In this document: positions 5,746 through 59,549 of the stretch, piece by piece
Layout: each line of letters starts with the position of its first letter
Numbering within the stretch: the first letter of the stretch is position 1
Assembly (NCBI RefSeq): GCF_963921235.1
Contig: NC_086108.1
Coordinates: forward strand, 78,618,001-78,682,000
Length of the DNA: 64,000 nt
Direction: 5' to 3'
DNA from: Mobula hypostoma
Lineage: Eukaryota
Program-made: the position numbers and the translations under genes
Notes under the pieces: model-generated
The model's database searches: none
What the model was told of the DNA's origin: nothing
Seen by the model: the letters and a program-made list of their open reading frames with translations, nothing else

Positions 5746-8132
5746 ACATAGAACATAGAACATAGAATAGTACAGCACAGTACAGGCCCTTCGGCCCACA
5801 ATGTTGTGCCGACCCTCAAACCCTGCCTCCCATATAAGCCCCCACCTTAGATTCCTCCATATACCTGTCTAGTAGTCTCTTAAACTTCACTAGCGTATCT
5901 GCCTCCACCACTGACTCAGGCAGTGCATTCCACGCACCAACCACTCTCTGAGTAAAAAACCTTCCTCTAATATCGCCCTTGAACTTCCCACCCCTTACCT
6001 TAAAGCCATGTCCTCTTGTGTTGAGCAGTGGTGCCCTGGGGAAGAGGCGCTGGCTATCCACTCTATTCCTCTTATTATCTTGTACACCTCTATCATGTCT
6101 CCTCTCATCCTCCTTCTCTCCAAAGAGTAAAGCCCTAGCTCCCTTAATCTCTGATCATAATGCATACTTTCTAAACCAGGCAGCATCCTGGTAAATCTCC
6201 TCTGTACCTTTTCCAATGCTTCCACATCCTTCCTATAGTGAGGTGACCAGAACTGGACACAGTACTCCAAGTGTGGCCTAACCAGAGTTTTATAGAGCTG
6301 CATCAATACATCGCGACTCTTAAACTCTATCCCTCAACTTATGAAAACTAACACCCCATAAGCTTTCTTAACTACCCTATCCACCTGTGAGGCAACTTTC
6401 AGGGATCTGTGGACATGTACCCCGAGATCCCTCTGCTCCTCCACACTACCAAGTATCCTGCCATTTACTTTGTACTCTGCCTTGGAGTTTGTCCTTTCAA
6501 AGTGTACCACCTCACACTTCTCCGGGTTGAACTCCATCTGCCACTTCTCAGCCCACGTCTGCATCCTATCAATGTCTCTCTGCAATCTTTGACAATCCTC
6601 TACACTATCTACAACACCACCAACCTTTGTGTCGTCCGCAAACTTGCCAACCCACCCTCCTACCCCCACATCCAGGTCGTTAATAAAAATCACAAAAATT
6701 AGAGGTCCCAGAACAGATCCTTGTGGGACACCACTAGTCACAACCCTCCAATCTGAATGTACTCCCTCCACCACCACCCTCTGCCTTCTGCAGGCAAGCC
6801 AATTCTGAATCCACCTGGCCAAACTTCCCTGGATCCCATGCCTTCTAACTTTCTGAATAAGCCTACCGTGTGGAACCTTGTTAAATGCCTTACTAAAATC
6901 CATATAGATTACATGCACTGCACTACCCTCATCTATATGCCTGGTCACCTCCTCAAAGAACTCTATCAGGCTTGTTAGACACGATCTGCCCTTCACAAAG
7001 CCATGCTGACTGTCCCTGATTTGACCATGATTCTCTAAATGCCTATAGATCCTATCTCTAAGAATCTTTTCCAACAGCTTTCCCACCACAGACGTAAGGC
7101 TCACTGGTCTATAATTACCTGGACTATCCCTACTACCTTTTTTGAACAAAGGGACAACATTCGCCTCCCTCCAATCCTCCGGTACCATTCCCGTGAACAA
7201 CGAGGACAGAAAGATCCTAGCCAGAGGCTCAGCAATCTCTTCCCTCGCCTTGTGGAGCAGCCTGGGGAATATTCCGTCAGGCCCCAGGGACTTATCTGTC
7301 CTAATGTAATTTAACAACTCCAACACCTCCTCTCCCTTAATATCAACATGCTCCAGAACATCAACCTCACTCATATTGTTCTCACCATCATCAAGTTCCC
7401 TCTCATTGGCGAATACCGAAGAGAAGTATTCATTGAGGACCTCGCTCACTTCCACAGCCTCCAGGCACATCTTCCCACCTTTATCTCTAATCGGTCCTAC
7501 CTTCACTCCTGTCATCCTTTTTTTCTTCACATAATTGAAGAATGCCTTGGGGTTTTCCTTTACCCTACTCACCAAGGTCTTCTCATGCCCCCTTCTTGCT
7601 CTTCTCAGCCTCTTCTTAAGCTCCTTTCTTGCTTCCCTATATTCCTCAATAGACCCATCTGATCCTTGCTTCCTAAACCCCATGTATGCTGCCTTCTTCC
7701 ACCTGACTAGATTTTCCACCTCACTTGTCACCCACGGTTCCTTCACCCTATCATTCTTTATCTTCCTCACCGGGACAAATTTATCAAGAGATCTCTAAAC
7801 ATCGACCACATGTCCATAGTACATCTCCCTGCAAAAACATCATCCCAATTCACACCCGCAAGTTCTAGCCTTATAGCCTCATAATTTGCCTTTCCCCAAT
7901 TAAAAAATTTCCTGTCCTCTTTGATTCTATCCTTTTCCATGATAATTATAAAGGCCAGGGAGTGGTGGTCGCTGTCCCCCAGATGCTCACCCACTGAGAG
8001 ATCTGTGACCTGACCCGGTTCATTACCTAGTACTAGATCTAGTATGGCATTCCCCCTGGTCGGCCTGTCCACATACTGTGACAGGAATCCGTCCTGGACA
8101 CACTTAACAAATTCTGCCCCATCTAAACCCTT
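5746..8132 (-). mobile_element. 5'-truncated CR1 LINE, about 2.4 kb, relatively young
   Basis: Tail of catagaa repeats at about 5746-5768. Contains the endonuclease end (RPTRGNAILDLVL, GDSDH) and the RT. Confidence 0.95.
6334..7770 (-). pseudogene. CR1 ORF2 reverse transcriptase, 478-aa open segment of a truncated and disrupted ORF2
   Basis: NYRPVSLTSVVGKLLE, QHGF, DFSKAF, SGVPQGSVLGP, FADD motifs. A stop and frameshifts separate it from the flanking ORF2 pieces (5995-6306, 7767-8168). Confidence 0.9.
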
Positions 8133-8694: not shown

Positions 8695-10422
8695 ATTTGC
8701 CATCTATAAATTTGCTGGCAATACAACAACTGTTGGCAAAATCTCAGATGGTGACGAGGTGGCATAAAGGAGTAAGATATACTAGCTAGTTGAGTGGTGG
8801 CACAGCAACTACTTTGCACTCAACGTCAGTAAGAGCAAAGAATTGATTGGGGACTTCAGGAAGGGTAAGATGAGGTGTGACGAAAGACCAAGTTATCAGA
8901 AGATTGCTGTTAATGAGAGAGATAAGTGAGACAATGGAGCAGCATTCAGAAATGTTAATGAGATGCGAGAGAGATTAACGAAAAGAGACACAGTTCTGAG
9001 TATTGACAGACTGGTTGCTTTGAACCTGAATTGTTTGAAGTTTGATGGACAGGCGATACCCCAGCAGGGGGATAAAAGGAACAGGTTCACTAAGGCAAGA
9101 CAGACACCACGAGATCACGAGGTAACGAGACCCTGGAAGTGCGGTGTGCTCCCACAAGTTGGTGGGAGTTTTGGAGGTCTGGTCGCGGGACCGACCAGAG
9201 ACGCACAGGGTGAAAAGGTACGATCGGCGGGAACCTGGTGTGTGTGTCCGCCCTTGCCTGGGTGCCGGGTTCACCGCGGAAGAACGAACGTATCCGGAAC
9301 GGAGGGGTCACAGTCGGTGACCTCAGAAGACATTAAAAGGGCTCACGCCGAAAGCTAACTGCGAGGAACATCAAAGGTCTGTGAATCGAAATTTGCATTC
9401 ACTCGCTCTCTCTCTCTCTCTCCAACGGCACAACAGCAATTACTGCGAACTGTACTCAGCTGAACTGAACTCTGCGTCACTTGAGAATGATCATTTTGCC
9501 CCTAGACTGCGATAGAGCTTGATTGATTCCTATTATCCTAGTTCTGTGTACGTGTGTTTTATCATTGCTAACCCGTTGCATTTATATCCTTATGATTAGA
9601 GTACTGTGTTACTTATTTCTTTACTAAAACTTTCTTAGTTCCAGTAATCCAGACTCCAACTGTGTGGTCCATTTCTGCTGGTTTGGCAACCCAGTTACGG
9701 GGTACGTAACAGAGGAAAGACACACCAGTCCTCATAGAGGGATCAGAAGTGGAAAGAGTGAGCAACTTCAAGTTCCAGGGTGTCAATACTTCTGAGGACT
9801 TAGGCTGGACCCAACATATCGATGCAGCTATAAAGAAGGCAAGCAGTGGCTGTATATCATTAGGAGCTTGAGGAGATTTGGTACGCCACCAAAATCACTC
9901 GCAAGTTTCTACAGATATATCATGGAGAGTATTCTAACTGGCTGTATCACTGTCTGGAGTGGGGAGGGAGGGGGGCTACTGAATGGGATCCAAATAAGCT
10001 GCAGAGGGTTGTAAAATTAATGAGCTCCATCATGGGCACTAGCCTCCGTAGTATCCTCCAGGACAACTTCAAAGAGTGGTGCCTCACAAAGGCCGCATCC
10101 ACCATTAAGGACTCCGATCACGCAGGACATTCCCTCTTCTCACTGCTACCATCAGGAAGGAGGTACAGAAGCCTGAAGGCACACACTCAGCGATTCAGGA
10201 ACAGCTTCTTCCCATCGCCCATCTGATTCCCAAATGGACATTGAACCCATGAACACCATCTCACTACTTATTTAACTCACTCTTTCATTATACGTCCATA
10301 CATAAATTGAAAAAATTCACAAATTTTCCCCTCTATTATCATGTACTGCATTGTGGTGCTGCCACAAAGTTAACAAATTTCACGACATATGCCAGTGATA
10401 ATAAACCTGATTCTGATTCTGA
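8695..10422 (+). mobile_element. Rex1/Babar-type LINE 3' part, interrupted by a solo LTR
   Basis: [20 protein letters not shown] before the LTR continues as [14 protein letters not shown] after it. Later LLPSGRRYRSLKAHTQRFRNSFFP, then the tail aataaacctgattctgattctga. Confidence 0.85.
8876..9711 (+). mobile_element. Solo LTR (836 bp) of the Gmr1-like Gypsy family
   Basis: TGTGAC...GTAACA termini. 4-bp TSD GAGG at 8872-8875 and 9712-9715. The 3' end is nearly identical to the LTRs at 54463 and 58721. Confidence 0.92.
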
Positions 10423-11757: not shown

Positions 11758-13527
11758 GAGTGTGTCACCACCCACAGCTCTAATCTGCTAATTAAGTTTG
11801 CCGACGACACTACATTGCTTGGGCTAATCTCAAACAATAACGTGGTGGATTACAGGTGTTACGTACCCCGTAACCGGGTTGCCAAACCAGCAGAAATGGA
11901 TCACTCAGTTGCAGTCTGGATTACTAGAACTAAGAAAGTTTTATTAAAGAAACAAGCAACACAGTACTCTAATCAAAAGGATAATAAATGCAACAGTTCA
12001 GCAATGATAAACACACATGTACACAGAATTAGGATAACAGGATCAATCAAGCTCTATCATCATCTAGGGGTAAATGACCAGTTTCAAAGTGACGCAAAGT
12101 TCAGTTCAATTGAGTTCAGTTCAGTTCACAGTAATCACTGCCGTGGGAGATGGACAGTGGGGGGGAGGAGAGACAGAGCAAAAATGAATGAATATTCAAA
12201 CGGCTTCCACACAGACTTTCGATATTCTTCGCAGTCAGCTTTCGGGCGAGCCCTTTGTGATGTCTTCTGAGGTCACCGACCGTGACCCCTCCGTTTCCAG
12301 ATACGATCGTTTCCCTGCGGTGAACCTGGCACCCAGGCAAGGGCGGACACACACCAGGTTCCCGCCGATCGTACCTTACCACCCTGTGCGTCTATGGCTT
12401 GGTCCCGCGACCAGCCCTCCAAAACTTCCTGCCGACTTGAGGGAGACGCACCGCTTCCAGGGTCTCGTTACCTCGGGGTGTCGTGTGTGTCTTGCCTTAG
12501 CGAACCTGTCCCTTTTTATCCCCCTGCTGGGGTATCACCTGTCCATCACTTCAAACAGTTCAGGGTTCAAAGGGGGGCCGATCTTGACGGCTCTCCTTCC
12601 GTCCCTTAATTAACATCTCCAAATGCTGCTCGATTGTTTTCCTTATCTCTCTTTCTCCTGAAGACAGGTGGTAGACCAACTGCTGATCCCACTGGTGCCA
12701 GCACAGGACAGTTAACATCTTAATCTATGTGTACTCTCGTCACACAGGGAAGAAGCCATCTTTCTGACACAGTGGTATCAAGAAAACAATCTCTCCCTCA
12801 ATGTCGCAAAAACAAAGGAGCTGGTTGTGGATTACAGGATGAATGGAGATGGGCTAACCTCTATTGACATTAATGGATCTGGGGTTGAGAGGGTAAACAG
12901 CTTTAAGTTCCCCGGCATCCACGTCACCGAGGACCTCACATGGTCTGTACACACCATCTGTGTGGTGAAAAAGGCACAACAGTGCCTATTTCATCTCAGA
13001 CGGTTGAGAAAGTTTAGTATGGGCGCCCAAATCCTAAGAACTTTCTACAGGGGTACAGTAGAGAGCATCCTGACTGGCTGCATCACTGCCTGGTATGGGA
13101 ACTGTACTTCGCTCAATCGCAGGACTCTGCAGAGAGTGGTGCAGACAGCCCAGCGCATCTGTAGTTGTGATATTCCCACGATTCAGGACATTTACAAAGA
13201 CAGGTGTGAAAAAAGGGCCCGAAGGACCATTGGGGATCCGAGTCACCCCAACCACAAACCGTTCCAGCTGCTATCATCTGGGAAATGGTACCGCAGCATA
13301 ACAGCCAGGACCAACAGGCTCCAGGAGAGCTTCTTCCACCAGGCCATAAGACTGATTAACTCATGCTAATTTGAGTGTATTTCTATGTTACATTGACTGT
13401 TCTATTTAATATAAATTATTATAAATTACTATGATTGCACATTGCACATTTAGACGGACACATAATGTAAAGATTTTTACTCCTCATGTATGTGAAGGAT
13501 GTAAGAAATAAAGTCAATTCAATTCAA
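11758..13527 (+). mobile_element. Rex1/Babar-type LINE 3' part, interrupted by a solo LTR
   Basis: CVTTHSSNLLIKFADDTTLLGLISNN, then after the LTR the ORF 12827-13369 (VERVNSFKFPG...[15 protein letters not shown]...SFFHQAIRLIN). Tail aataaagtcaattcaattcaat. Confidence 0.88.
11857..12744 (-). mobile_element. Solo LTR (888 bp) of the Gmr1-like Gypsy family
   Basis: Reverse complement of the 54463 LTR; on the + strand it reads tgttacgtacccc...gtcaca. TSD CAGG at 11853-11856 and 12745-12748. Confidence 0.92.
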
Positions 13528-20448: not shown

Positions 20449-22905
20449 AAACACAAGATAATCTGCAGATGCTGGGAATCCAAGGTAACACACACAAGAT
20501 GCTGGAGGAACTCAGCAAGTCAGGCAGCAGCTATGGAAAAGAATAAACCGTCAAAATTTCATGCTGAGACCCCTCATCAGGACTGGAAAAAAAGATGAGA
20601 ATTCAAAGTAAAAAGGTGGGGGGAGGGGAGGAGAAGTACAAGGTGGTAGGTGATAGGTGAAACCAGGAGAGGGGGAGAGGGTGAAAAGCTGGGAAGTTGA
20701 TTGGTAAAAGAGGTAAAGGGCTGCAGGTATCTGATAGGAGAGGGTAGAAGACCATGGAAAAAAGGGAAGGGGGAAGAGCACCAGAGGGAGGTGATGGGAA
20801 TGGTGAAATAGGGGCAACTGCCAGAAGTTCGTGATATAGATGTTCACGCCAGCAGGTTGGAGGCAACCCAGACAGAATATAAGGTGTTGTTCCTCCAACC
20901 TAAGTGTGGCCTCATTGTGGCAGTCGACTGACATGTCAGAATGTGCATGGAAAATACGATTAAAATGGGTGACCACTGGGGGATCACGCTTTTTCTAGCG
21001 GACAGAGCGCAGGTGCTTGGTGAAGGGGGTCTCCCAATCTATGTCAGGTCTCACCAATATACCAAAAGCCACACCAGGAGCACCAAATACAGTAGATTCA
21101 CAGGTGAAGGACTGTTTAGGGCCCTGAGTGGTAGTGAGGGTGGAAGTGTAGGGGCAGGTGTAGCACTTGCTCTGCTTGTAAGGATAAGGGAAAAGTACCA
21201 GGAGGGAGATCAGTGGGGAGGGAGGAACGGACCAGGGGGTCGTGTAGGGAGTGATCCCTACAGAAAGCAGAAAGTGGGGGGGGGGGGAAGAGGAGGTAAA
21301 GACGTGCTTGGTGGTGAAATCCCGTTGGAGATGGCGGAAGTTACAGAGAATTATGTGCTGGATGCAGAGGCTAACGAGGTGGTAGGTGGGGACAAGAGAA
21401 TCAGAATCAGATTTATTATCACCGGCATGTGACGTGAAATTTGTTAACTTAGCAGCAGCAGTTCAATGCAATACAAAATCTAGCAGAGAGAGAAAAAAAA
21501 AACATAATAATAAATAAGCAAGTAAATCAATTACGTATATTGAATAGATTTTTTTAAATGTGCAAAAACAGAAACACTGTATATTTGAAAAAGTGAGGTA
21601 GTGTCCAAAGTTTCAATGTCCATTCAGGAATTGGATGGCAGAGGGGAAGAAGCTGTTCCTGAATCGCTGAGTATGTGCCTTCAGGCTTCTGTATCTCCTA
21701 ACTGATGATAACAGTGAGAAAAGGGCATGCCCTGGGTGCTGGAGGTCCTTAATAATGGACACTGTCTTTCTGAGGTCACCCCTCCCTAAAGATGTCCTGG
21801 GTACTTTGTAGGCTAGTGCCCAAGATGGAGCTAACTAGATTTACAACCTTCTGTAGTTTCTTTTGGTCCTGTGCAGTAGCCACTCCATACCAGAGAGTGA
21901 TGCAGCCTGTCAGAATGCTCTCCATGGTACAACTATAGAAGTTTTTGAGTCTATTTGTTGACATGCCAAATCTCTTCAAACTTCTAATAAAGTATAGCTG
22001 CTGTCTTGCCTTCTTTATAACTACATCGGTGTGTTGGGACCAGGTTAGATCCTCAGAGATCTTGACACCGAGGAACTTGAAGCTGCTCACTCTCTCCACT
22101 TCTGATCCCTCTATGAGGATGGGTATGTGTTCCTTCGTCTTACCCTTCCTGAAGTCCACAATCAGCTCTTTTGACTTACTGACGTTGAGTGCCAGGTTGT
22201 TGCTACAGCACCATTCCACTAGTTGGCATAGCTCACTCCTGTACGCCCTTTTGTCACCACCTGAGATTCTACCAACGATGGTTGTATCGTCAGCAAATTT
22301 ATAGATGGTATTTGAGCTATGCCTAGCCACACAGCCATGTGTATACAGAGAGTAGAGCAGGGGGTTAAGCACACACCCCTGAGGTGCACCAGTGTTGATA
22401 GTCAGCGAGGAGGATATGTTATCACCAACCCGCACAGACTGTGGTCTTTCGGTTAGGAAGTTGAGGATCCAATTGTAATCCTATCCCTGGTATTGCAATG
22501 GGAGGATGGGTGAGGGTAGCCATGCGTGAAATGGAAGAGATGCAGGTGAGGGCTTCGTTGATGGTAGAGAAAGGAAAGCCCCTTTCTTTGAAGGAGGAGG
22601 ACATCCATTAGTGCTGGAATGAAAAGCTTCATCCTGAGTGCAGATGCAGTGGAGACTGAGGAACTGAGAGAAGGAGATGGCATTTTTACAAGTGACAGGG
22701 TGGGAAGAGGTATAGTCCAGGTAGCTGTGAGAATCAGTGGGTTTATAAAAGATATCAGTGGATAGGCTGTATCCAGAGATAGAGATAGAGAGATCGAGAA
22801 AGGGGAGGGAGGTGTCAGAAATGGACCAAGTAAACTTGAGGGCGAGGTGAAAGTTGGAGGCAAAGTAGATGAAGTTGCCGAGCGGTTGCCGATGTAGCGT
22901 AGGAG
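20449..22905 (-). mobile_element. Penelope-like element (RT C-terminus, GIY-YIG end, terminal repeat), split by a Rex LINE
   Basis: HFNRIFHAHSDMSV...EATLRLEEQHLIFCLGCLQPAGVNI and MSSSFKERGFPFSTINEAL. Terminal repeat atctgcagatgctgg...gctggaggaactcagc with a CTGATGA core. Continuous across the insertion (gacaagag|aatcctatccctgg). Confidence 0.8.
21397..22478 (-). mobile_element. 5'-truncated Rex1/Babar LINE with a 219-aa RT segment (21776-22435)
   Basis: [23 protein letters not shown]...[12 protein letters not shown]...[17 protein letters not shown]; (agaatc)n tail. Confidence 0.92.
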
Positions 22906-23131
22906 ACCATTCTCAAATGAGCAGCTATTTATTACATAAGGTGGCAAGCTTGCAGGAGAAGCAATCTGTCATCTCATGAGACTCGGTGTCTGGGTCACCT
23001 GGCTTGACAAGCTTGAATCAGTGTCAGCGTTGAAAAGAACAAAGGCACGGGGTTTAGGGCAGAGAGCATCAAACAATTCTGGTTGTAGCCCTGGACCAGA
23101 TCCAATAAGAAGGTGGCCCAGGTAGGTCAGA

Positions 23132-30087: not shown

Positions 30088-32380
30088 AAAAACATAGAAA
30101 ATAGGTGGAGTAGGCCATTCGGCCCTTCGAGCCTGCACCGCCATTCAGTATGATCATGGCTGATCATCCAACTCAGAATTCTGTACCTGCCTTCTCTCCA
30201 TACACCCTGATCCCTTTAGCCACAAGGGCCATATCTAACTGCCTCTTAAATATAGCCAATGAACTGGTCTCAACTGTTTCCTGTGGCAGAGAATTTCACA
30301 GATTCACCACTCTCTGTGTGAAGAAGTTTTTCCTCATCTCGGTCCTAAAAGGCTTCCCCTTTATCCTCAAACTGTGACCCCTCGTTCTGGACTTCCCCCA
30401 ACATCGGGAACAATCTTCCTGCATCTAGCCTGTCCAATCCCTTTAGGATTTTACATGTTTCAATCAGATCCCCCCTCAATCTTCTAAATTCCAGAGAGCA
30501 CAAGCCTAGCTGATCCAGTCTTTCATCATATGAAAGTCCTGCCATCCCAGGAATCAATCTGGTGAACCTTCTTTGTACTTCCTCTATGGCAAGAATGTCT
30601 TTCCTCAGATTAGGGGACCAAAACTGCACACAATACTCCAGGTGTGGTCTCACCAAGGCCTTGTACAACTGCTGTAGTACCTCCCTGCTCCTGTACTCGA
30701 ATCCTCTTGCTATGAATGCCAGCATACCATTCGCCTTTTTCACCATCTGCTGTACCTGCATGCCTACTTTCAATGACTGGTGTATAATGACACACAGGTC
30801 TCGTTGCACCTCCCCTTTTTCTAATCTGCCACCATTCAGATAATAATCTGTTTTCCTGTTTTTGCCACCAAAGTGGATAACCTCACATTTATCCACATTA
30901 AATTGCATCTGCCATGAATTTGCCCACTCACCTAACCTATCCAAGTCACCCTGCATCCTCTTAGCATCCTTCTCAGAGTTAACACTGCTGCCCAGCTTCG
31001 TGTCATCCGCAAACTTGGAGATGCTGCATTTAATTCCCTCATCTAAGTCATTAATATATATTATAAACAACTGGGGTCCCAGCACTGAGCCTTGTGGTAC
31101 CCCACTAGTCACTGCCTGCCATTCTGAAAAGGTCCCGTTTATTCCCACTCTTTACTTCCTGTCTGCCAACCAATTCTCTATCCACATCAATACCATACCC
31201 CCAATACTGTGTGCTTTAAGTTTGCACACTAATCTCCTGTGTGGGACCCTGTCAAAAGCCTTTTGAAAATCCAAATATACCACATCCACTGGTTTTCCCC
31301 TATCCACGCTATTAGTTACATCCTCAAAAAATTCTATGAGATTCGTCAGACATGATTTTCCTTTCACAAATCCATGCTGACTTTGTCTGATGATTTCATC
31401 GCTTTCCAAACGTGCTGTTATCACATCTTTGATAACTGACTCTAGCATTTTCCCCACCAGCAATGTTAGGCTAACCGGTCTACAATTCCCCGGTTTCTCT
31501 CTCCCTCCATTTTTATAAAGCCGGGTTACATTAGCCACCCTCCAATCCTCAGGAACTAATCCAGAATCTAAAGAGTTTTGAAAAATTATCACTAATGCAT
31601 CCACTATTTCTTGGGCTACTTCCTTAAGCACTCTGGGATGCAGACCATCGGGCCCTGGGGATTTATCTGCCTTTAATCCTTTCAATTTACCTAACACCGC
31701 TCCCCTACTAACATGTATTTCCTTCAGTTCCTCCATCTCACTAGACCCTCAGTCCCTTACTATTTCCTGAAGATTATTTATGTCCTCCTTAGTGAAGACA
31801 GAACCTAAGTAGTTATTCAATTGGTCTGCCATGTCCTTGTTCCCCATGATCAATTCACCTGTTTCTGATTGTAAGAGACCTACATTTGTCTTAACCAATC
31901 TTTTTTTTCTTTTCACATATCTATAAAAGCTTTTACAGTCAGTTTTTATGTTCCCTGCCAGTTTTCTCTCATAATCTTTTTTCCCTTTCCTAATTAAGCC
32001 CTTTGTCCTCCTCTGCTGGACTCTGAATTTCTCCCAGTCCTCAGGTGAGCCGCTTTTTCTGGCTAATTTGTATGTTTCTTGTTTGGAATTGATACTATCC
32101 CTAATTTCCCTTGTCAGCCACAGGTGCATTACCTTCCCTGGTTTATTCTTTTGCCAAACTGGGATGAACAATTGTTGTAGTTCATCCATGCAACCTTTAA
32201 ATGCTTGCCATTGCATATCCACCGTCAACCCTTTAAGTATCATTTGCCTGTCTATTTTAGCTAATTCATGTCTCATACCTTCAAAGTTACCCTTCTTTAA
32301 GTTCAGAACCTTTATTTCTGAATTAACTATGTCACTCTCCAGCTTAATGAAGAATTCCACGATATTATGGTCTCTCTTAC
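30088..32380 (-). mobile_element. 5'-truncated CR1 LINE, about 2.3 kb, with ORF2 broken into three in-frame pieces
   Basis: ORFs 31749-32396, 31152-31736 (KSPGPDGLHPRVLKE, QHGF, DFQKAFD) and 30345-31148 (SGVPQGSVLGP, FADD). 3' tail aacatagaaaatagg. Confidence 0.95.
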
Positions 32381-32599
32381 CATAAGTGACATTCATCCAA
32401 TTCCATCCCTAATTTCACTTGGAATTACCTCTTTGCTCTTAATATAGCCTTCCGCAGGTTGCAATTAGATGTCCTATAGAGTTCTAGATCAGCAGTCTCA
32501 AATACCACAGATCTAGTCCGAAGGATATTACAAGTCCCCTGGTTCAGCTTCTATATGAAGCAACAGATAGCCTCAGTCCAAACAAATATTGACATGTGA

Positions 32600-36023: not shown

Positions 36024-36225
36024 TGCTTTAGAGTTTTAGGAAATCACAAATGCAGTTACTACTGGAGAATAATGCTCCATCTGAAAGGGTCTGGCCACCT
36101 TTGACAATGTGACTGAACCTCTCTGTTTCTGTCACTAGAAGTCACTAGAGACTGAAAAAATTCCAAATTTTTGTAATAATATTGGCTGTTGGTAACAGCT
36201 TGTGCTTACCACCTAGCAGAAGAAG

Positions 36226-36828
36226 AAACTGGAGAAATGAGGAACACTCCGTATACGTATGGACAAGATGGAACTGGGGAAATGAGGAACACTCCGTATA
36301 CAGTAAGGACAAGATCAAACTGGGGAAATGAGGAACACCATATACAGTGTGGAGAAGATGGAACTGAGGAAATGAGGAACACTCCATATACAGTATGGAC
36401 AAGATCAACCTGGGGAAGAGGAACTCCATATACAGTAAGGACAAGATGGAACTGAGGAAATGAGGAACACACGATATAGAGGATGGACAAGATGGAACTG
36501 GGAAAATGAGGAATACTCGATATAGAGCATGGACAAGTTCGAACTGGGGAAATGAGGAACACTCGATATAGAGGATGGACAAGATGGAACTGGGGAAATG
36601 AGGAACACTCAATATGGAGTATGGACAAGATGGAACTGCGGAAATGAGGAACACTCGATATAGAGGATGGACAAGATGGAACTGGGGAAATGAGGAACAC
36701 TCGATATACAGGATGGACAAGATGGAACTGGGGAAATGAGGAACACTCGATATAGAGAATGGACAAGATGGAACTGGGGAAATGAGGAATACTCGATATA
36801 GAGTATGGACAAGTTCGAACTGGGGGAA
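36226..36828. repeat. Minisatellite, 46-bp unit, about 13 copies
   Basis: Unit gaactggggaaatgaggaacactcgatatagaggatggacaagatg; for example, copies start at 36541 and 36587. Confidence 0.95.
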
Positions 36829-37594
36829 GGAGGATAATCAAAAGATAGAGAAAGATCAGGAATGCGAAACTTGGTGCAAATGACAGGATGGTGCTTTCCG
36901 GTGTATGCTACTTCTGAACTAGTATCAACTGGGAAAATAGCAGAATTGAATGACGATTGAGGATGAAAGAGCCAAGAAAACAAAATATGATAACTTCGGA
37001 ATAGAAGTCAAGTATCCAGTGTTGAAAATCTCTACAAAATCCATTGATTTTAGAGACTAATTTTTCACAGCTTGCCCAGTCGATGTAGAACCGTGGACAC
37101 TTACATTTGTAACTACAATTCACTAAGTTGAATGTTATTTCAAGTTCCTCTTCATTCTCCTTAGGAAGCACAGGTTTCGGTGAGCTTCCTTGGCCATGGC
37201 ATCTATGTACTGGTGAAATTCACATGCAGCAATTTGAAGTATTCAAGTCTCTCGACCTTAGCATTGTTAATAAAGAAAGGAGCATGTGCACTGCCCCCTT
37301 TCCTGAAGTCAATGACCAGCTCTTTTTTGTTTTGCTGACATTAAGGGAAAGGCTATCGTCATGACACCACATGTTTCTAAGCTCTCTATCTCCTTCCAGT
37401 AATCCGATTCATTACCATTTTATAATGGCCCACTACTTCATGGATACTCTTCTGCCTCATGTGATTTGGCAGAACAAAGAAACACAGAAGGCTCATTACA
37501 TCAGCTGAATTTTTGACAAAGATGAATCCTCTTAGCTATATTACAGTCCCACAGGTGAATCTGCTGGGCAATGTTGCACGCCACCTTTCCAGCA

Positions 37595-44840: not shown

Positions 44841-46057
44841 GCATCACAATCATAGAACCTCAGACAACATGACTGCATTATCTTCACCCAAAGACTTGCA
44901 GATGGCAGCTCAGCACCAGCGTCTCAGGTAGGTGATGCTGACCTTACCACTAACAGAGGCATCAAGTTAGACAGTACAGAATCAAGTCCTTGAGCCAGCC
45001 TTATCTATGGAGATAAAAAAAATAAAAGAAGAAATAAAACTAACTGAGAACGAAATTGCATCAGATGTGCTCAGACACATTAAAAAGCCAAAAGTCAAGA
45101 GATGTAAACTGGGTGTGCAATAGAATAACTTGAGAACAGAAGTCTGAGATAAAAGGTAAAGGTATTAGCTGTAAAATTCCCTAAAAAGCAAACCAGTTTA
45201 TCCGTAATGACTTATGATCGCCAACCCTCATGGGTAATGTGCTTTGTAGGATCATTTTGAATAGATTGAAACAGCTGTTGCACTCAAGAAGATTAAGCTC
45301 ATTTTCATCTTGAAGGTTGTTATGTTATGTTCAGGCAATTGTTCTCTCAAGAAGATTTATCAAGTTTTACTGCACCAGTTTAATATCTATTTTAAAACCT
45401 GTCAAAGGCCCCCTGGAAGATCCTGAGGAACAATGGAATTCCATGAATGCTACGTGACCGAAGTTTTGGGTGATGTATTTAGCTGCATTGGGTTCAGAGG
45501 AGTAATGCGTGTATCTGAAAGGTGTGTGTGTGTGATCCCCATCTCTCTTCTGCAACAGTCTTTGCTATAGCTACGCATCTTGGGATGCCTGAGTAAGCAG
45601 GTGCCTTTGGAATCTGGAGAAGCTATTTTAGCAAATATGAGAATATTCATTCTGAACATGAAAGTTAAAGATGACAAACTAATACCCATTTCAGTACAGA
45701 ACATACCTTCGAGATGGGGAGAATACTGAGAAGTACAGTATGAAAGTGAAAATGTGAAGTATAATACCTTGCAACCATACGAAAGAGGTGAAAATAAAGT
45801 CTGAAGAAACAAATGCACAGTAAAATGAGACTGCTCAATACATTCCCAGAACACAGATGGACACAGGAAGCACACAACAGGAAGATGAAATTAATCTCTT
45901 CAACTTGCTAATTAATACATCAACAAACTTCATGTTGTACAAATCAGTGACAATAAATCTGATTCTAAATTATAAACACTGCAGATGCTGGTTAATGTTT
46001 CAGGTCGACCTTCAACCTGAACTGTTAATGCTGTTTCTCCTACCACAGATGCTGCCT

Positions 46058-46919
46058 GACCACGACTGTGTGGCTGGGCACAGCTCAAACGCCCTCTATA
46101 AATTTGCCCATGACACAACTATTGCTGGCAGAATTTCAGATGGTGACAAGGAGGCGTACAGGAGTGAGATAGATCAGCTGGTTGGGTGCTGTTGCAGCAA
46201 CCACCTTGCATTCAATGCCAGTAAGGCCAAAAAATTGATTGTGGACTTCAGGAAGGAGAAGTCGAGGAAACACAGACCTGTCCTCATACAGGGATCAGCA
46301 ATGGAAAAGGCGAGCTGTTTCCTTGGCATCAATATTTCTAAAGATCTATCCTGGTCCCAACATATTGATGCAATTACAAAGTGGCTGTACTTCATTAGGG
46401 ATTGGATGAACATTGGTATGTCACCAAAGACATTCATAAAGTTCTACAGATGTATCATGAAGAGCATTCTGACTGATTGCTTCACCATCTGCTGTGCAAG
46501 GACCATTGCACAGGATTGGAAAAAGCTGCAGAAAGTTGTAATCTCAGCCAGTTCCATCGTGGGCACTAGCCTCCCTAGCATTCACGACACCTTCAAAAGG
46601 TGGTGCATCAAAAAGGTGGTATCCATCATTAAGGATTTTCATCACTCAGAAAGTGGCCTCTACCATCACAGCAGAGGTACCGGAGCTTGAAGACACACAC
46701 TCAATGTTTCAGGAATAATTTCTTTCCCTCTGCCATCAGATTTCTGAATGGACAATGAACCCATGAACACCATCTCACTACTTTTTCCCCTCTCTTCCTG
46801 CATTTCTTTTTGTAATTTATAGTTTTTATTATATACTGTAATGTACTGCTGCCACAAATCAACAAATTTCGCGACGTATGCCAGTGATTTTAAACCTGAT
46901 TCGTATTCTGATTCTGAAT
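46058..46919 (+). mobile_element. Rex1/Babar 3' part (RT C-half)
   Basis: HDCVAGHSSNALYKFAHDTTIAGRISDGDKEAYRSE...; tail aaacctgattcgtattctgattctgaat. Confidence 0.88.
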
Positions 46920-54280: not shown

Positions 54281-54462
54281 TCCAAATTTCAAAGTACAGT
54301 TATTATCAAAGTACGTATACATTATACAGCCTTGTAACCTTACAGGTAGCCACAAAACACGAACACATTAAAATAAAAAACCAACAACCACACATTGTGC
54401 ATAGAGAAAGAGAAAAACAAACTGTGCAAATAAATGTAGGTAAGCAAATAGCATTTAGAAGG

Positions 54463-55264
54463 TGTGACAAGAATACACATAGATTAAGATGTAGCTGGCC
54501 TGGGCTGGCACCAGTGGAATCAGCAGTTGGTCTGCCACCTGTCTTCAGGAGAGAGAGAGATAAGGAAAACAATGCAGCAGCTTTTGGAGATGTTAATGAA
54601 GCAAGATCGGCTCCCCCTTTGAACCCTGAACTGTTTGAAGTGATGGACAGGCGATACCCCAGCAGGGGAATAAAAAGGGACAGGTTCACTAAGGCAGGAC
54701 ACACACGACACCCGAGGTAACGAGACCCTGGAAGCAGTGCGTCTCTCACAAGTCAGTGGGAAGTTTTGAAGGCACGATTGGCGGGAACCTGGTGTGTGTC
54801 CACCCTTGCCTGGGTGCCAGGTTCACCGCAGGGAAACGATTCGTATCTGGAAACGGAGGAGTCACGGTCGGTGACCTCAGATGACATCACAAAGGACTCG
54901 CCCGAAAGCTGACTGCGAAGGTCTGTGTGGAAGTCGTTTTGAATATTCATACGTTTTGCTCTCTCTCTCCTTCCCCCCACTGTCCATCGCCACGGCAGCG
55001 ATTACTGCGAATTGAACTGAACTTTGCGTCACTTTGAAACTGGTCATTTACCCCTAGACAACGATAGAGCTTGATTGATCCTGTTATCTTAATTCTGTGT
55101 ACATATATGTTTATCATTGCTGAACTGTTGCATTCAATATCCTTTTGATTAGAGTACCGTGTTGCTTGTTTCTTTAATAAAACCTTCTTAGTTCTAGTAA
55201 TCCAGACTCCAATTGAGTGATCCATTTCTGCTGGTTTGGCAACCCAGTTACGGGGTACGTAACA
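54463..55264 (+). repeat. 5' LTR
   Basis: tgtgacaagaatac...ggggtacgtaaca; AATAAA at 55176-55181. Confidence 0.97.
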
Positions 55265-55268
55265 TAAG

Positions 55269-55294
55269 TGGGGTTCTCGTCCGCGATTTTGAAC
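55269..55294 (+). promoter_or_regulatory. Primer-binding site, tRNA-Pro-like
   Basis: tggggttctcgtccgcgattttgaac versus the tRNA-Pro complement TGGGGGCTCGTCCGGGATTTGAAC, 4 nt after the LTR. Confidence 0.7.
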
Positions 55295-55363
55295 GCTAAA
55301 TTTGGGACGGAGTAAATTGATTGGGTCAAAATTCTCGAAAGAAAGAAAAGACAAACAGCAGAA

Positions 55364-56935
55364 ATGGAGGCTGAGGAAATTATAAAGGCGCCGACCTTGG
55401 AGGCATTAGAGGATGCCAGGAAAACAGAATTGGTAGCTGTGGCCAAACGGTTGAATCTTGCTAAGGGGAAGTCGACAATGAGGAGAGAGAAGATACACAG
55501 AGCTATCGTAGAGCACTATGTATCTAAAGGTGTGTTTCCCCAAGGCGAGCTGGAGGTGGTGCTATTGAAAAACCTGCCGGAGACGCGGTACAGGTGCAGC
55601 TTGAAAAACTGAGACTCGAGCACGAGTTCTGGGTACAGCAGTTAGAACACGAAGAGAAGCAGTTAGAAAGGCGGGAGAAAGAGAGAGAGTTAGAAAGGCA
55701 GGAGAGAGAGAGAGAGAGAGACAGCTGGAGCGAGAGGAGAAACAGAGGGAAAGGGAATTCGAGCTGGAGAAGTTAAAGATAAGGGCAGAGCAGGGGCCCG
55801 TGCCGAACCAAGGTGGAGGGTTCCAGGTGACCCAGGAGGTTAGGCTGGTTCCCCCATTTGACGATACCGACGTGGATCAGTACTTTCTCCATTTCGAAAA
55901 AGTTGCTATAAGTCAGGACTGGCCGAGGGATAAAGTGGGCTGTTTTGCTTCAGAGTGTACTGAAAGGGAAAGCCCAAGAAGCTTACTCGGCTTTGTCCAC
56001 AGAAGATGCCCAGAAGTATGAGGTGGTGAAGGAGGCCATCCTCAGGATTTATGAGTTGGTCCCGGAGGCATACTGGCAGAGGTTCCGGAATGCGAGGAAG
56101 CAGTGGGACCGCACGTATTTAGAGTTTGCCCGTGAGATGCAGACATATTGTGAGCGTTGGATCGCCTCGAAGGGGGTAGAGGGGGATTATGACAGACTGC
56201 TACAGCTGATCCTGATTGAGCAGTTTAAAGGTTGTGTCCCTGAGGGTACGAGACCCTACCTAGATGAGAAAGAGGCAGCCACGTTAGCCGCAACTGCTAA
56301 GTTAGCGGATGAGTATGCGTTGACGCATAAAATGAAGTTTGCCCCGAGTAAAGGCTACCAGAAGGGTAGTCAGGACGGCGGGGAGAGTCCGCCAGAAAAG
56401 TCAGCAAGTAAGCCGGGGACTAGTGAAAAGGATAAGGTAGACCGGGAGCAGTCTGGTAGGAAGTCTCCTGGGGTCGTCTGTTATAATTGCAGGAAAGTCG
56501 GACACATTGCGTCCAGGTGCTTTGCCCCAAAGAAGGAGAAGGGAAAAGGAAAAATGGCGATTTTGACTGGCTGTATCGAGCTGGTAAACGAACCGCTAGG
56601 GAAGGACAGGTCTGCCAAAGTTCAGGAAGGGCGCGAGAGGTTTATCCCAGCCGGATTGGTGTCAGTGAAGGAGGGGTTAAAACCAGTTCCAGTGCGGATC
56701 TGGAGAGACACGGGAGCGTGTCAGTCACTGATACTGAAGAGTGTATTAGAGTTTAGCTCAGAGACCCAGACTGGGGAGGTAAAGGTCAAAGGTGTTGGGG
56801 AAGGGACAGGGTCAGTCCCTTTGCACCAGATACACTTACAAAGCAACCTAGTCTCTGGACTAGTCACGATCGGGGTGAGGTCCGAATTACCGATGAAAGG
56901 CGTGGAAGTCTAGCTTGGTAATGACCTCGCCGGGG
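55364..56935 (+). pseudogene. gag: Gag (coiled coil, SCAN-like capsid, CCHC knuckle) plus aspartic protease, frameshifted
   Basis: VRLVPPFDDTDVDQYFLHFEKVA; PEAYWQRFRN...LQLILIEQF; CYNCRKVGHIASRC; IWRDTGACQSLI...VEV*LGNDLAGG. Confidence 0.9.
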
Positions 56936-57129
56936 GAATCGTGTTCGAAGCAGTGAGATTGACAAGTCAGCCTGCCAGCATTGAGGCCCCGCCCATGGAC
57001 TCACAGGTTCATCACGGGACTGCGGTAGTAAATTTAGCTGAGACGTTTCTGCCAGCCTTGTACGAGAAGGGGGTAGAAAGTGAAAAGAAGGAGTGTAGTA
57101 GACAAGAGGTAGTGAGGGAGCTGAGGCAG

Positions 57130-58602
57130 ACTTAGCATTAGCCAGGAAGGACTTTATACAGGCACAAGAGCGAGACGAGGAGCTGATGGGTTTGGCAGAG
57201 ACAGCTCTCTCTGACGCAGAATTGAAAAGGGAACCAGTCGGCTATTATGTAAAGGAGGAAGTTCTAAGGAAGAAAGGGAAACCAGGTACCGTACCCGCAG
57301 ATGAGGAATGGGGGGTGGTGCAAAAGAGTTATGGGGATGAGGTTTTTAACCTGGCCCACAAGGTACCCCCCGGTGGACATTTTGCGGTACTGGAGGGAAC
57401 AGTTGGTGGAATCATGAAAGAGGTTTACCAGCTGCCCAGGGGGAAGGATGCTATTGAACATGACCGACGTGAACTGAGACGGTCACAGGCTTTTGATATG
57501 CTAACAAACCTAGTCGGTGTTAGCACGGAAATTAATGAAGCTAGGGTCCCCCCGATAAGAGAAAAAAACCATTTTGAAAAGATGAGTATGGTATCAACCA
57601 GATGGGAGAAGGCTATTGTTTTGGCCAGGTCTGCTGATAAGGTCTCTCCCTTAATCCCCGAACAAAGCGACTCTTTAGGAGAAGTAATTAAATGACTCGC
57701 ACCAGTGTGCTTGATTGTCCCGAGGCGATGCAAAGAACTGGGACGTTGGGTGGTGTCTGTTACACTAGGGCAGCCTAGAGAGCAACAACCATATAGAATG
57801 AGTAATTCAGTGACTAAAGGGCTGACGAACACAGAGGTGTGTATTGGCGATGTCATACGGCTGTCTGAAGCCAGCTCGATAGTGAACCTTGAAAAAAATG
57901 AGTTCGGCCACACGAAGGTCACTTACCTGGGAATTGTGGTGACACAGGGGCAGCTGGCAGCAATGCAAGCTAAAGTACGGGCTATCTCTGACATCCCAAC
58001 CCCGACAGACGAGAGGGCCCTCAGAAGGTTCTTGGGGATGGTGGGATACTATAGGAAATTTTGCAAAAACTTTGCGGATACTTCCCTCCCTCTCACTAAG
58101 CTCTTGCCAAAGAATGTGAAGTTTGTATGGAACGACCTTTGCCAACAAGCCTTCGAGAGTCTGAAGGCAATTCTGTGTCGCAATTCTGTGTCACCATCCT
58201 GTGCTAAATACGCCTGATTTTTCAAAACCCTTCTCCCTAGCAACAGATGCTAGCGACGAAGCTGCCGGGGCGGTGCTGTTGCAGACAGACAAAGAGGGGG
58301 TTGAGCACCCAGTCACTTACTTCTCCAAGAAATTTAGTACCCATCAGAGAAATTATTCCACTGTGGAAAAGGAGTTACTGGCCATCATACTAGCATTGCA
58401 ACATTTTGAAGTTTATATTTGCCCGGCATGAAAACCACTGGTAATTTACATCGACCACAACCCTTTAGTGTTTTTGGCCAATATGAAAGATTAAAACAAA
58501 AGATTGCTAAGTTGGAGTCTGGTACTACAGGAATTTGATATCAAAATTACACATATAAAAGGGACGGAAAATGTGATTGCTGACTGTCTGTCAAGGTGTT
58601 GA
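57130..58602 (+). pseudogene. pol: Deleted pol: integrase N-terminal remnant, partial RT, near-intact RNase H
   Basis: LAHKVPPGGHF (IN HH); QQPYRM directly followed by TEVCIGDV (degenerate YIDD); VTYLG; LRRFLGMVGYYRKF; TDAS...NYSTVEKELLAI...IDHNPL...ENVIADCLSRC*. Confidence 0.85.
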
Positions 58603-58708
58603 CAACTTCAAATTCGCTGTATTAGCCAAATAGCTGATAAAGATGTATATTTGTGTGTATCAAGTAATGTATTCATGTTTGTAATTTTTACCCCTGGTAA
58701 AGATCCTT

Positions 58709-58720
58709 AAAGGGGGGAAG
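58709..58720 (+). promoter_or_regulatory. Polypurine tract
   Basis: aaaggggggaag immediately before the 3' LTR. Confidence 0.9.
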
Positions 58721-59522
58721 TGTGACAAGAATACACATAGATTAAGATGTAGCTGGCCTGGGCTGGCACCAGTGGAATCAGCAGTTGGTCTGCCACCTGT
58801 CTTCAGGAGAGAGAGAGATAAGGAAAACAATGCAGCAGCTTTTGGAGATGTTAATGAAGCAAGATCGGCTCCCCCTTTGAACCCTGAACTGTTTGAAGTG
58901 ATGGACAGGCGATACCCCAGCAGGGGAATAAAAAGGGACAGGTTCACTAAGGCAGGACACACACGACACCTGAGGTAACGAGACCCTGGAAGCAGTGCGT
59001 CTCTCACAAGTCAGTGGGAAGTTTTGAAGGCACGATTGGCGGGAACCTGGTGTGTGTCCACCCTTGCCTGGGTGCCAGGTTCACCGCAGGGAAACGATTC
59101 GTATCTGGAAACAGAGGGGTCACGGTTGGTGACCTCAGATGACATCACAAAGGACTCACCCGAAAGCTGACTGCGAAGGTCTGTGTGGAAGTCGTTTTGA
59201 ATATTCATTCGTTTTGCTCTCTCTCTCCTTCCCCCCACTGTCCATCGCCACGGCAGCGATTACTGCGAATTGAACTGAACTTTGCGTCACTTTGAAACTG
59301 GTCATTTACCCCTGGACAACGATAGAGCTTGATTGATCCTGTTATCTTAATTCTGTGTACATGTATGTTTATCATTGCTGAACTGTTGCATTCATTATCC
59401 TTTTGATTAGAGTACTGTGTTGCTTGTTTCTTTAATAAAACCTTCTTAGTTCTAGTAATCCAGACTCCAACTGAGTGATCCATTTCTGCTGGTTTGGCAA
59501 CCCAGTTACGGGGTACGTAACA
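58721..59522 (+). repeat. 3' LTR
   Basis: Same length as the 5' LTR, with about 11 substitutions by manual alignment. Confidence 0.97.
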
Positions 59523-59549
59523 AAGGAAAGTCAGTTCTCAGACACAGAG

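Follow-up and report, generated by a model that had tools for sequence, protein, structure and literature searches.

The DNA analysed here is a 64,000-nucleotide stretch of the Mobula hypostoma genome (contig NC_086108.1, positions 78,618,001 to 78,682,000 of the forward strand; hereafter, the window), in which positions 54463-59522 hold a 5,060-bp insertion of a long terminal repeat (LTR) retrotransposon. A preliminary description, made from the letters alone, had seen in it a young element of the Gmr1 type that lost most of pol before it last moved. Comparison with its relatives leads us to conclude that the element probably belongs to a semi-autonomous family of mobulid rays, descended from a Gmr1-type Ty3/Gypsy retrotransposon, and that this copy has probably recaptured its RNase H (RH) segment.

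By domain content, domain order, and relatives, the element is of the Gmr1 type of Ty3/Gypsy. Gmr1-like organization is given as a SCAN-type capsid followed by protease (PR), integrase (IN), and reverse transcriptase (RT)/RH (bioRxiv 10.1101/2025.03.03.638093), and Gmr elements are reported to have a single gag-pol open reading frame (ORF) of 1506-1634 aa (PMC11117352). In the window copy, Pfam detected SCAN (PF02023, E 5e-12), zf-CCHC, and RT_RNaseH. Relatives bearing the Integrase_H2C2 domain align at 57132-57461, upstream of the RT remnant, giving the order PR-IN-RT-RH, and the RH frame ends at 58602, 106 nt before the polypurine tract (58709-58720; all element features lie on the + strand), with no integrase after it; the preliminary description had put this distance at about 110 bp. 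We searched the Gag-PR frame against proteins of 584-2000 aa and considered the best 120 of 199 matches. Seven gene models of Mobula hypostoma head the list (88-93% identity); their domains are SCAN and CCHC only. Below them, among the matches listed, come proteins of stingrays and also numerous complete polyproteins. Among the 120 matches listed per search, the IN-first order was found in 54/54 Gag matches and 45/45 RH matches that have both domains. In an RH tree of 26 rows, the window copy is sister to the Mobula ORF P0148 (support 100/100), and its nearest rows are all IN-first; IN-first rows split from five IN-after outgroups with weak support (66/32) in this tree, which has long outgroup branches and does not include cod Gmr1.

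Pol survives as a chain of remnants. Because Pfam returned no relevant family for the IN/RT remnant pieces of the window copy, they were identified through relatives. The first (57132-57467) is an IN N-terminal remnant that retains the His pair but not the Cys pair; its positions 57132-57461 match P0274, a Mobula protein whose full zinc-binding domain runs into the integrase core, at 73 of 110 residues. This remnant ends at deletion 1, where ~288 aa are missing in comparison to P0155, a complete polyprotein of the sawfish Pristis. Next come the IN C-terminus and the IN-RT linker (57468-57798), ending at deletion 2, where ~126 aa of the RT N-half are missing, and an RT palm remnant (57799-57857), whose degenerate YIDD reads CIGD, as described earlier, and which ends at deletion 3 (18 aa). 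An RT C-terminal remnant (57858-58001) is family-like, having derived residues in common with P0004 and P0273. The junctions map to ~57465-57470, 57795-57800, and 57857/58, within 10 nt of the earlier estimates for the loss of the IN core, the RT N-half, and the segment past YIDD.

P0273, a 408-aa protein of Mobula birostris, is colinear with the window copy (188/287) and carries a cut Integrase_H2C2 and a cut RVT_1. Both P0273 and P0274 contain Pfam Integrase_H2C2, and through them the suspected H2C2 similarity of the IN remnant is borne out. Aligned to P0155, P0273 is missing the integrase core (~residues 610-897) and the RT N-half (~1016-1141), and the window joins at ~57467 and ~57798 are the same as its own, whereas the third deletion (18 residues, 57857) is absent from it. 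By these alignments, P0273 is an intermediate that carries part of the deletion set, a point that goes beyond the preliminary description. All large deletions are in frame. Short repeated dipeptides mark joins 1 and 2; template slippage would leave such a pattern and may have produced both joins. We rejected a simple stepwise deletion series ending in RH loss, as P0273 does not have deletion 3 yet its RH is apparently gone.

The deletions are family-wide, and the deleted form has amplified to many copies. We compared 20 Mobula family proteins, 17 from M. hypostoma and 3 from M. birostris. Junction 1 is crossed without a large insertion in 13/13 proteins that reach it and junctions 2-3 in 11/11; the other 7 of the 20 end earlier or shift frame. 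Contigs matching the interior numbered 12,973, 8,562, 559, and 802 in four runs with three organism labels; they cover its whole length, and their identities are graded from >99% to <90%. Among 32 of ~22,950 pieces, contigs without large gaps bridge junction 1 (two), junction 2 (five), and junction 3 (three). Scans of metagenome contigs and viral contigs gave no confirmed relatives. The single gag-pol frame, interrupted in the window copy, is open from the Gag start through PR and the remnant at five loci (939-1004 aa), and the family thus has the open Gag-PR that had been anticipated. Since divergence of the remnant from helper-type proteins (those resembling complete elements) is 33-36% and that between the LTRs is 1.4%, pol loss preceded the window insertion, as first proposed. 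A single autonomous Gmr1 copy that decayed in place, with private deletions, would be in keeping with the nine coding breaks of the window copy, but it is refuted by the junctions, which recur at numerous loci and in contigs under three organism labels; the disparity in divergence also speaks against it.

At the level of protein identity, a proxy and not dN/dS, Gag and PR have remained conserved while the pol remnant drifted. Between the window copy and family copies, identity is 92-95% in the capsid (one partial protein aside), 86-90% in the nucleocapsid, and 85-92% in PR, whereas the integrase remnant reaches only 71-78% and the linker 75-82%; in autonomous elements, the IN N-terminal region (IN-N) is conserved as much as the capsid, or more. 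Identity to Pristis P0155 gives the same picture: compared with autonomous elements, the window copy is normal in the capsid (58 vs 55-66%) and close to their lower bound in PR (49 vs 51-62%), but low in IN-N (46 vs 61-69%) and in the linker (22 vs 52-60%). The PR motif is altered in one of eight aligned family proteins (P0005). The remnant has stayed in frame. In the window copy, which was not picked for openness, 290 remnant codons spanning all three deletions read in a single frame with one stop, where drift would leave ~3-5.5 (P 0.03-0.2), and the remnant stays in one open frame in other family copies, which the preliminary description had not reported. This pattern hints at selection to keep the tail open, though it is no proof of it; a parallel is the mouse intracisternal A-particle (IAP) subtype IΔ1.

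The same data bear on whether the family needs its Gag-PR protein at all. If it were fully non-autonomous, the conservation of Gag-PR would come from RNA signals or from repeated refreshing by helper recombination. Recombination is indeed seen in the family (below), and the window copy is broken 66 codons into Gag, with more breaks than its LTR age predicts. We nevertheless regard this explanation as improbable, given five full-length open frames of ~1,000 aa and large deletions that are all in frame. Moreover, Gag-PR forms a family-specific cluster (85-95% identity within the family vs 68-82% to the full-IN types P0274/P0276) and hence was not recently refreshed.

Downstream of the remnant, the window copy changes character. 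Positions 58002-58602 encode RT thumb/connection and RH with all four acidic RH motifs, interrupted by two stops and by the 13-bp tandem duplication at 58167-58192 seen earlier, and are helper-like, 87-91% identical to P0148, which has complete RT and RH. Within this region, 58142-58412 is present in the window copy and absent from other family copies (deletion 4). All eight family proteins that read that far skip ~90 RH codons and resume near window position 58447; a contig with a loose end at 58141 matches the window from 58413 onward at 23/30 letters (by eye), and P0273 appears to end at the deletion 4 join (few residues). RH is therefore not a family trait, and of the earlier proposal that the family keeps Gag-PR and possibly RH, the first part stands, on slow divergence and open frames, and the second does not, the window RH being best explained as regained. 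Summed contig depth falls over 58145-58489 in all four runs; we did not use this as evidence, as contig depth cannot rank parts.

A step in identity marks the boundary. Window identity to P0148 rises from 42/66 (64%) before 58002 to 43/47 (91%) after it (p=8e-4) and is 86-87% through RH, whereas P0273 shows no such step (48/66 vs 36/47; p=0.67). Derived sites joining the window copy with the family are all upstream (15, with 0 downstream); sites that join P0004 and P0273 against the window copy number 0 upstream and 4 downstream (p=2.6e-4). Recombination with a crossover between ~57980 and 58035 is thus well supported at the protein level. As to its direction, we favor, with reasonable though not high confidence, recapture of RT thumb and RH from a helper-type RNA.

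Alternatively, RH might never have been lost from a sublineage in which purifying selection preserved thumb and RH once the polymerase was gone, the RH-less majority being the recombinant; RH would then perhaps contribute its activity to mixed particles or serve there as a packaging structure. The intact acidic motifs agree with such retention, as does the lack of excess decay of the window RH relative to Pristis (73-75% vs 73-76% for P0148). Identity of 87% to P0148 fits a split, under selection, as old as that implied by the Gag-PR identities to P0274/P0276, and window-like RH also occurs in contigs (4 differences in 196 nt). Retention, however, requires both one recombination and prolonged selection for RH in an element that has no RT, and recapture requires the recombination only; P0273 decays evenly on either side of 58,002, as if the segment had been neutral from the start; and none of the eight family proteins reaching the region has RH. 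We consider retention doubtful but worth keeping in view.

The history that we favor, with recapture, runs as follows. In-frame deletions removed the IN core, the N-half of RT, and 18 residues past YIDD, and in most copies also most of RH. The deleted form multiplied, its Gag and protease conserved at the protein level and its pol remnant drifting in the same reading frame. Ty3/Gypsy mobility needs RT, RH, and IN inside the particle. Because the family can supply only Gag and protease, it would have to borrow its enzymes from complete Gmr1 elements: it would make its own Gag-PR particle protein and favor its own RNA, and in mixed particles it would use the RT, RH, and IN of such a helper. Co-packaging with the helper would also explain a template switch, near 58,000, onto helper-type RNA, by which the window lineage seems rather likely to have regained RT thumb and RH, the latter as a passenger. 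Helper-type pieces occur in both Mobula species (P0148, P0274, and P0276). The window copy itself is now coding-dead.

Several points weigh against this history. First, neither a complete helper ORF nor its LTR was seen in Mobula, only the pieces P0274, P0276, and P0148. Second, the window RH still differs from P0148 by 13% (6 window-specific, 7 helper-specific, and 5 ambiguous changes); on this comparison the donor was not exactly P0148, and the same distance would also fit an RH retained for long under selection. Third, P0273 appears already to carry deletion 4 on the basis of a few C-terminal residues and one contig loose end matched by eye. Fourth, the family proteins are RefSeq gene models, partly from a search at >=584 aa, which favors open frames, and the stop-depletion test is weak by itself. 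Fifth, the breaks in the window copy (9, within 55364-58602) exceed what 1.4% LTR divergence predicts, namely ~1 stop by a hand estimate vs 4 seen. The window copy may thus have moved when already dead, which would mean that it did not strictly require Gag of its own. Death on arrival, LTR conversion, and assembly error are candidate causes of this excess interior decay.

The window copy is now coding-dead, as it has five frameshifts (near 55561, ~55705-55722, 55932, 57099, and 58167-92) and four stops (56911, 57693, 58429, and 58492), the first break lying at Gag codon 66. Gag, PR, and RH are readable, as initially stated, but the breaks are nine rather than a few. Gag (55364-56565) comprises an N-terminal domain, E/R-rich coiled-coil repeats, a SCAN-type capsid, and a CCHC knuckle at 56479, with three frameshifts. 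For the aspartic protease (56641-56979; DTG motif at ~56707; one stop), the Pfam RVP match is weak and is to the relative P0008 (E 0.053). At the four stop positions, most contig depth, in nearly all covering runs, has other letters, and the stops are therefore not family-wide. The number of units in the E/R-rich coiled-coil repeat (window 55600-55770) varies widely among copies, and a GA microsatellite lies inside this repeat region, where the window copy shifts frame.

Hallmarks of an LTR retrotransposon insertion are present: paired TG...CA LTRs of 802 nt (54463-55264 and 58721-59522), the polypurine tract, and a 4-bp target-site duplication (TSD), AAGG, on both sides (54459-54462 and 59523-59526). 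A G-rich tract at 55269-55287, 4 nt inside the 5' LTR, resembles a primer-binding site, presumably for tRNA-Pro, with an imperfect match (~3 mismatches). The LTRs differ, as counted before, at 11 of 802 sites (9 transitions, no indels; Kimura two-parameter distance 1.4%), and CpG sites account for five of these. A suspected concentration of CpG decay in one LTR found no support, the differences splitting 6:5 between the 5' and 3' LTR when polarized with a solo LTR. At a shark pedigree mutation rate reported as 7e-10 per generation (PMC10587355), 0.7% per LTR corresponds to ~ten million generations. The earlier label "young" hence holds only relative to the decay of the pol remnant and not in absolute terms, the absolute age being uncertain.

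Two solo LTRs of the same family lie in the window at 11857-12744 (- strand; ~94%) and 8876-9711 (+ strand; ~84%; both over aligned columns). Each has its own 4-bp TSD, sits in DNA resembling long interspersed nuclear elements (LINEs), and is longer than the 802-nt LTR; on the + strand, the TSDs of the element and both solo LTRs end in AGG (n=3). LINE-type RT remnants (RVT_1) occur at 6334-7794, 21776-22968, and 30345-32408 (- strand) and at 12716-13369 (+ strand). Two LINE pieces match the Pfam ALKBH8_N model, which probably represents a LINE C-terminal piece. Window frames 45824-46690 and 36206-36907 have no Pfam match.

A separate Gmr1-derived lineage (P0009-P0011, P0013, P0015, and P0120 of Hypanus and Hemitrygon, and P0012) has Gag-PR followed by an open non-pol tail of 250-400 aa. 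These stingray tails weakly resemble a second Gag/PR copy (28-31% identity, E 7e-5 to 7e-4), and no significant self-match was found in them. The lineage is possibly a convergent semi-autonomous family. We offer, as a tentative idea well short of a favored one, that batoid Gmr1 twice gave rise to Gag-PR semi-autonomous families, in Mobula and in stingrays, in which 300-400 junk codons after the protease are kept open by selection because translation across the RNA is itself needed for mobility; the Mobula family would in addition exchange enzyme segments with its helper, and RH without polymerase may persist in a sublineage as its functional share in mixed particles.

In RefSeq, several retrotransposon frames are named after host genes (P0004, P0128, P0132, P0133, P0148, and P0014, under the names MACC1, UBE2G2, PPM1Lb, trichohyalin-like, HSPB1-associated protein, and mucin-6-like). 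These are either insertions in or near genes or annotation errors. Mobula gene sets are thus contaminated, with family frames annotated as uncharacterized or misnamed host proteins (MACC1 isoform, PPM1Lb isoform, and others).

Coding non-autonomous LTR elements are already known as a kind and have been described mostly in plants and as endogenous retroviruses (ERVs) of rodents or fish. Among the articles listed in our searches of the open literature, repeat databases (Repbase, Dfam) not included, none reports such a family for Gmr1, Mobula, rays, or cartilaginous fish. In Mobula, helper type, intermediate, and end form are all preserved in one genus, and two questions become testable from sequence: is the open frame selected for its own sake, and how often do parasite and helper recombine?

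Wheat RLG_Sabrina_SA / RLG_WHAM is reported as a high-copy "semi-autonomous" Gypsy family with a GAG-protease ORF, without RT and IN and in need of an autonomous partner, and template switching between Sabrina partners is discussed (PMC9744471). Mobula family copies likewise keep an intact Gag-protease ORF without working RT/IN; Sabrina_SA is a plant lineage, and the available text on it describes no in-frame decayed pol tail or regained enzyme segment. Plant TR-GAG elements are given as non-autonomous LTR elements with a Gag-only ORF and a length under 4 kb (PMC4350172), and zebrafish Bik-1/Bik-2 as non-autonomous ERVs that keep Gag (PMC12067270). The window element, at 5,060 bp, is longer than the former and differs from both in its protease and pol-remnant tail. 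In mouse IAP IΔ1, an internal deletion is reported to have created an in-frame gag-pol fusion ORF, whose protein acts in cis, and a successful non-autonomous subtype (PMC6466679). IΔ1 is a betaretrovirus-like ERV, and its one deletion, of 1.9 kb, removes part of gag as well, whereas the ray family has Gag-PR whole, up to four deletions, and a tail known here only as open and in frame. Within the Gmr1-like clade, finally, the window element shares the SCAN capsid followed by PR, IN, and RT/RH in the single-frame type; its family differs in being without the IN core and RT catalytic parts, with best frames of 939-1004 aa, and would be immobile alone.

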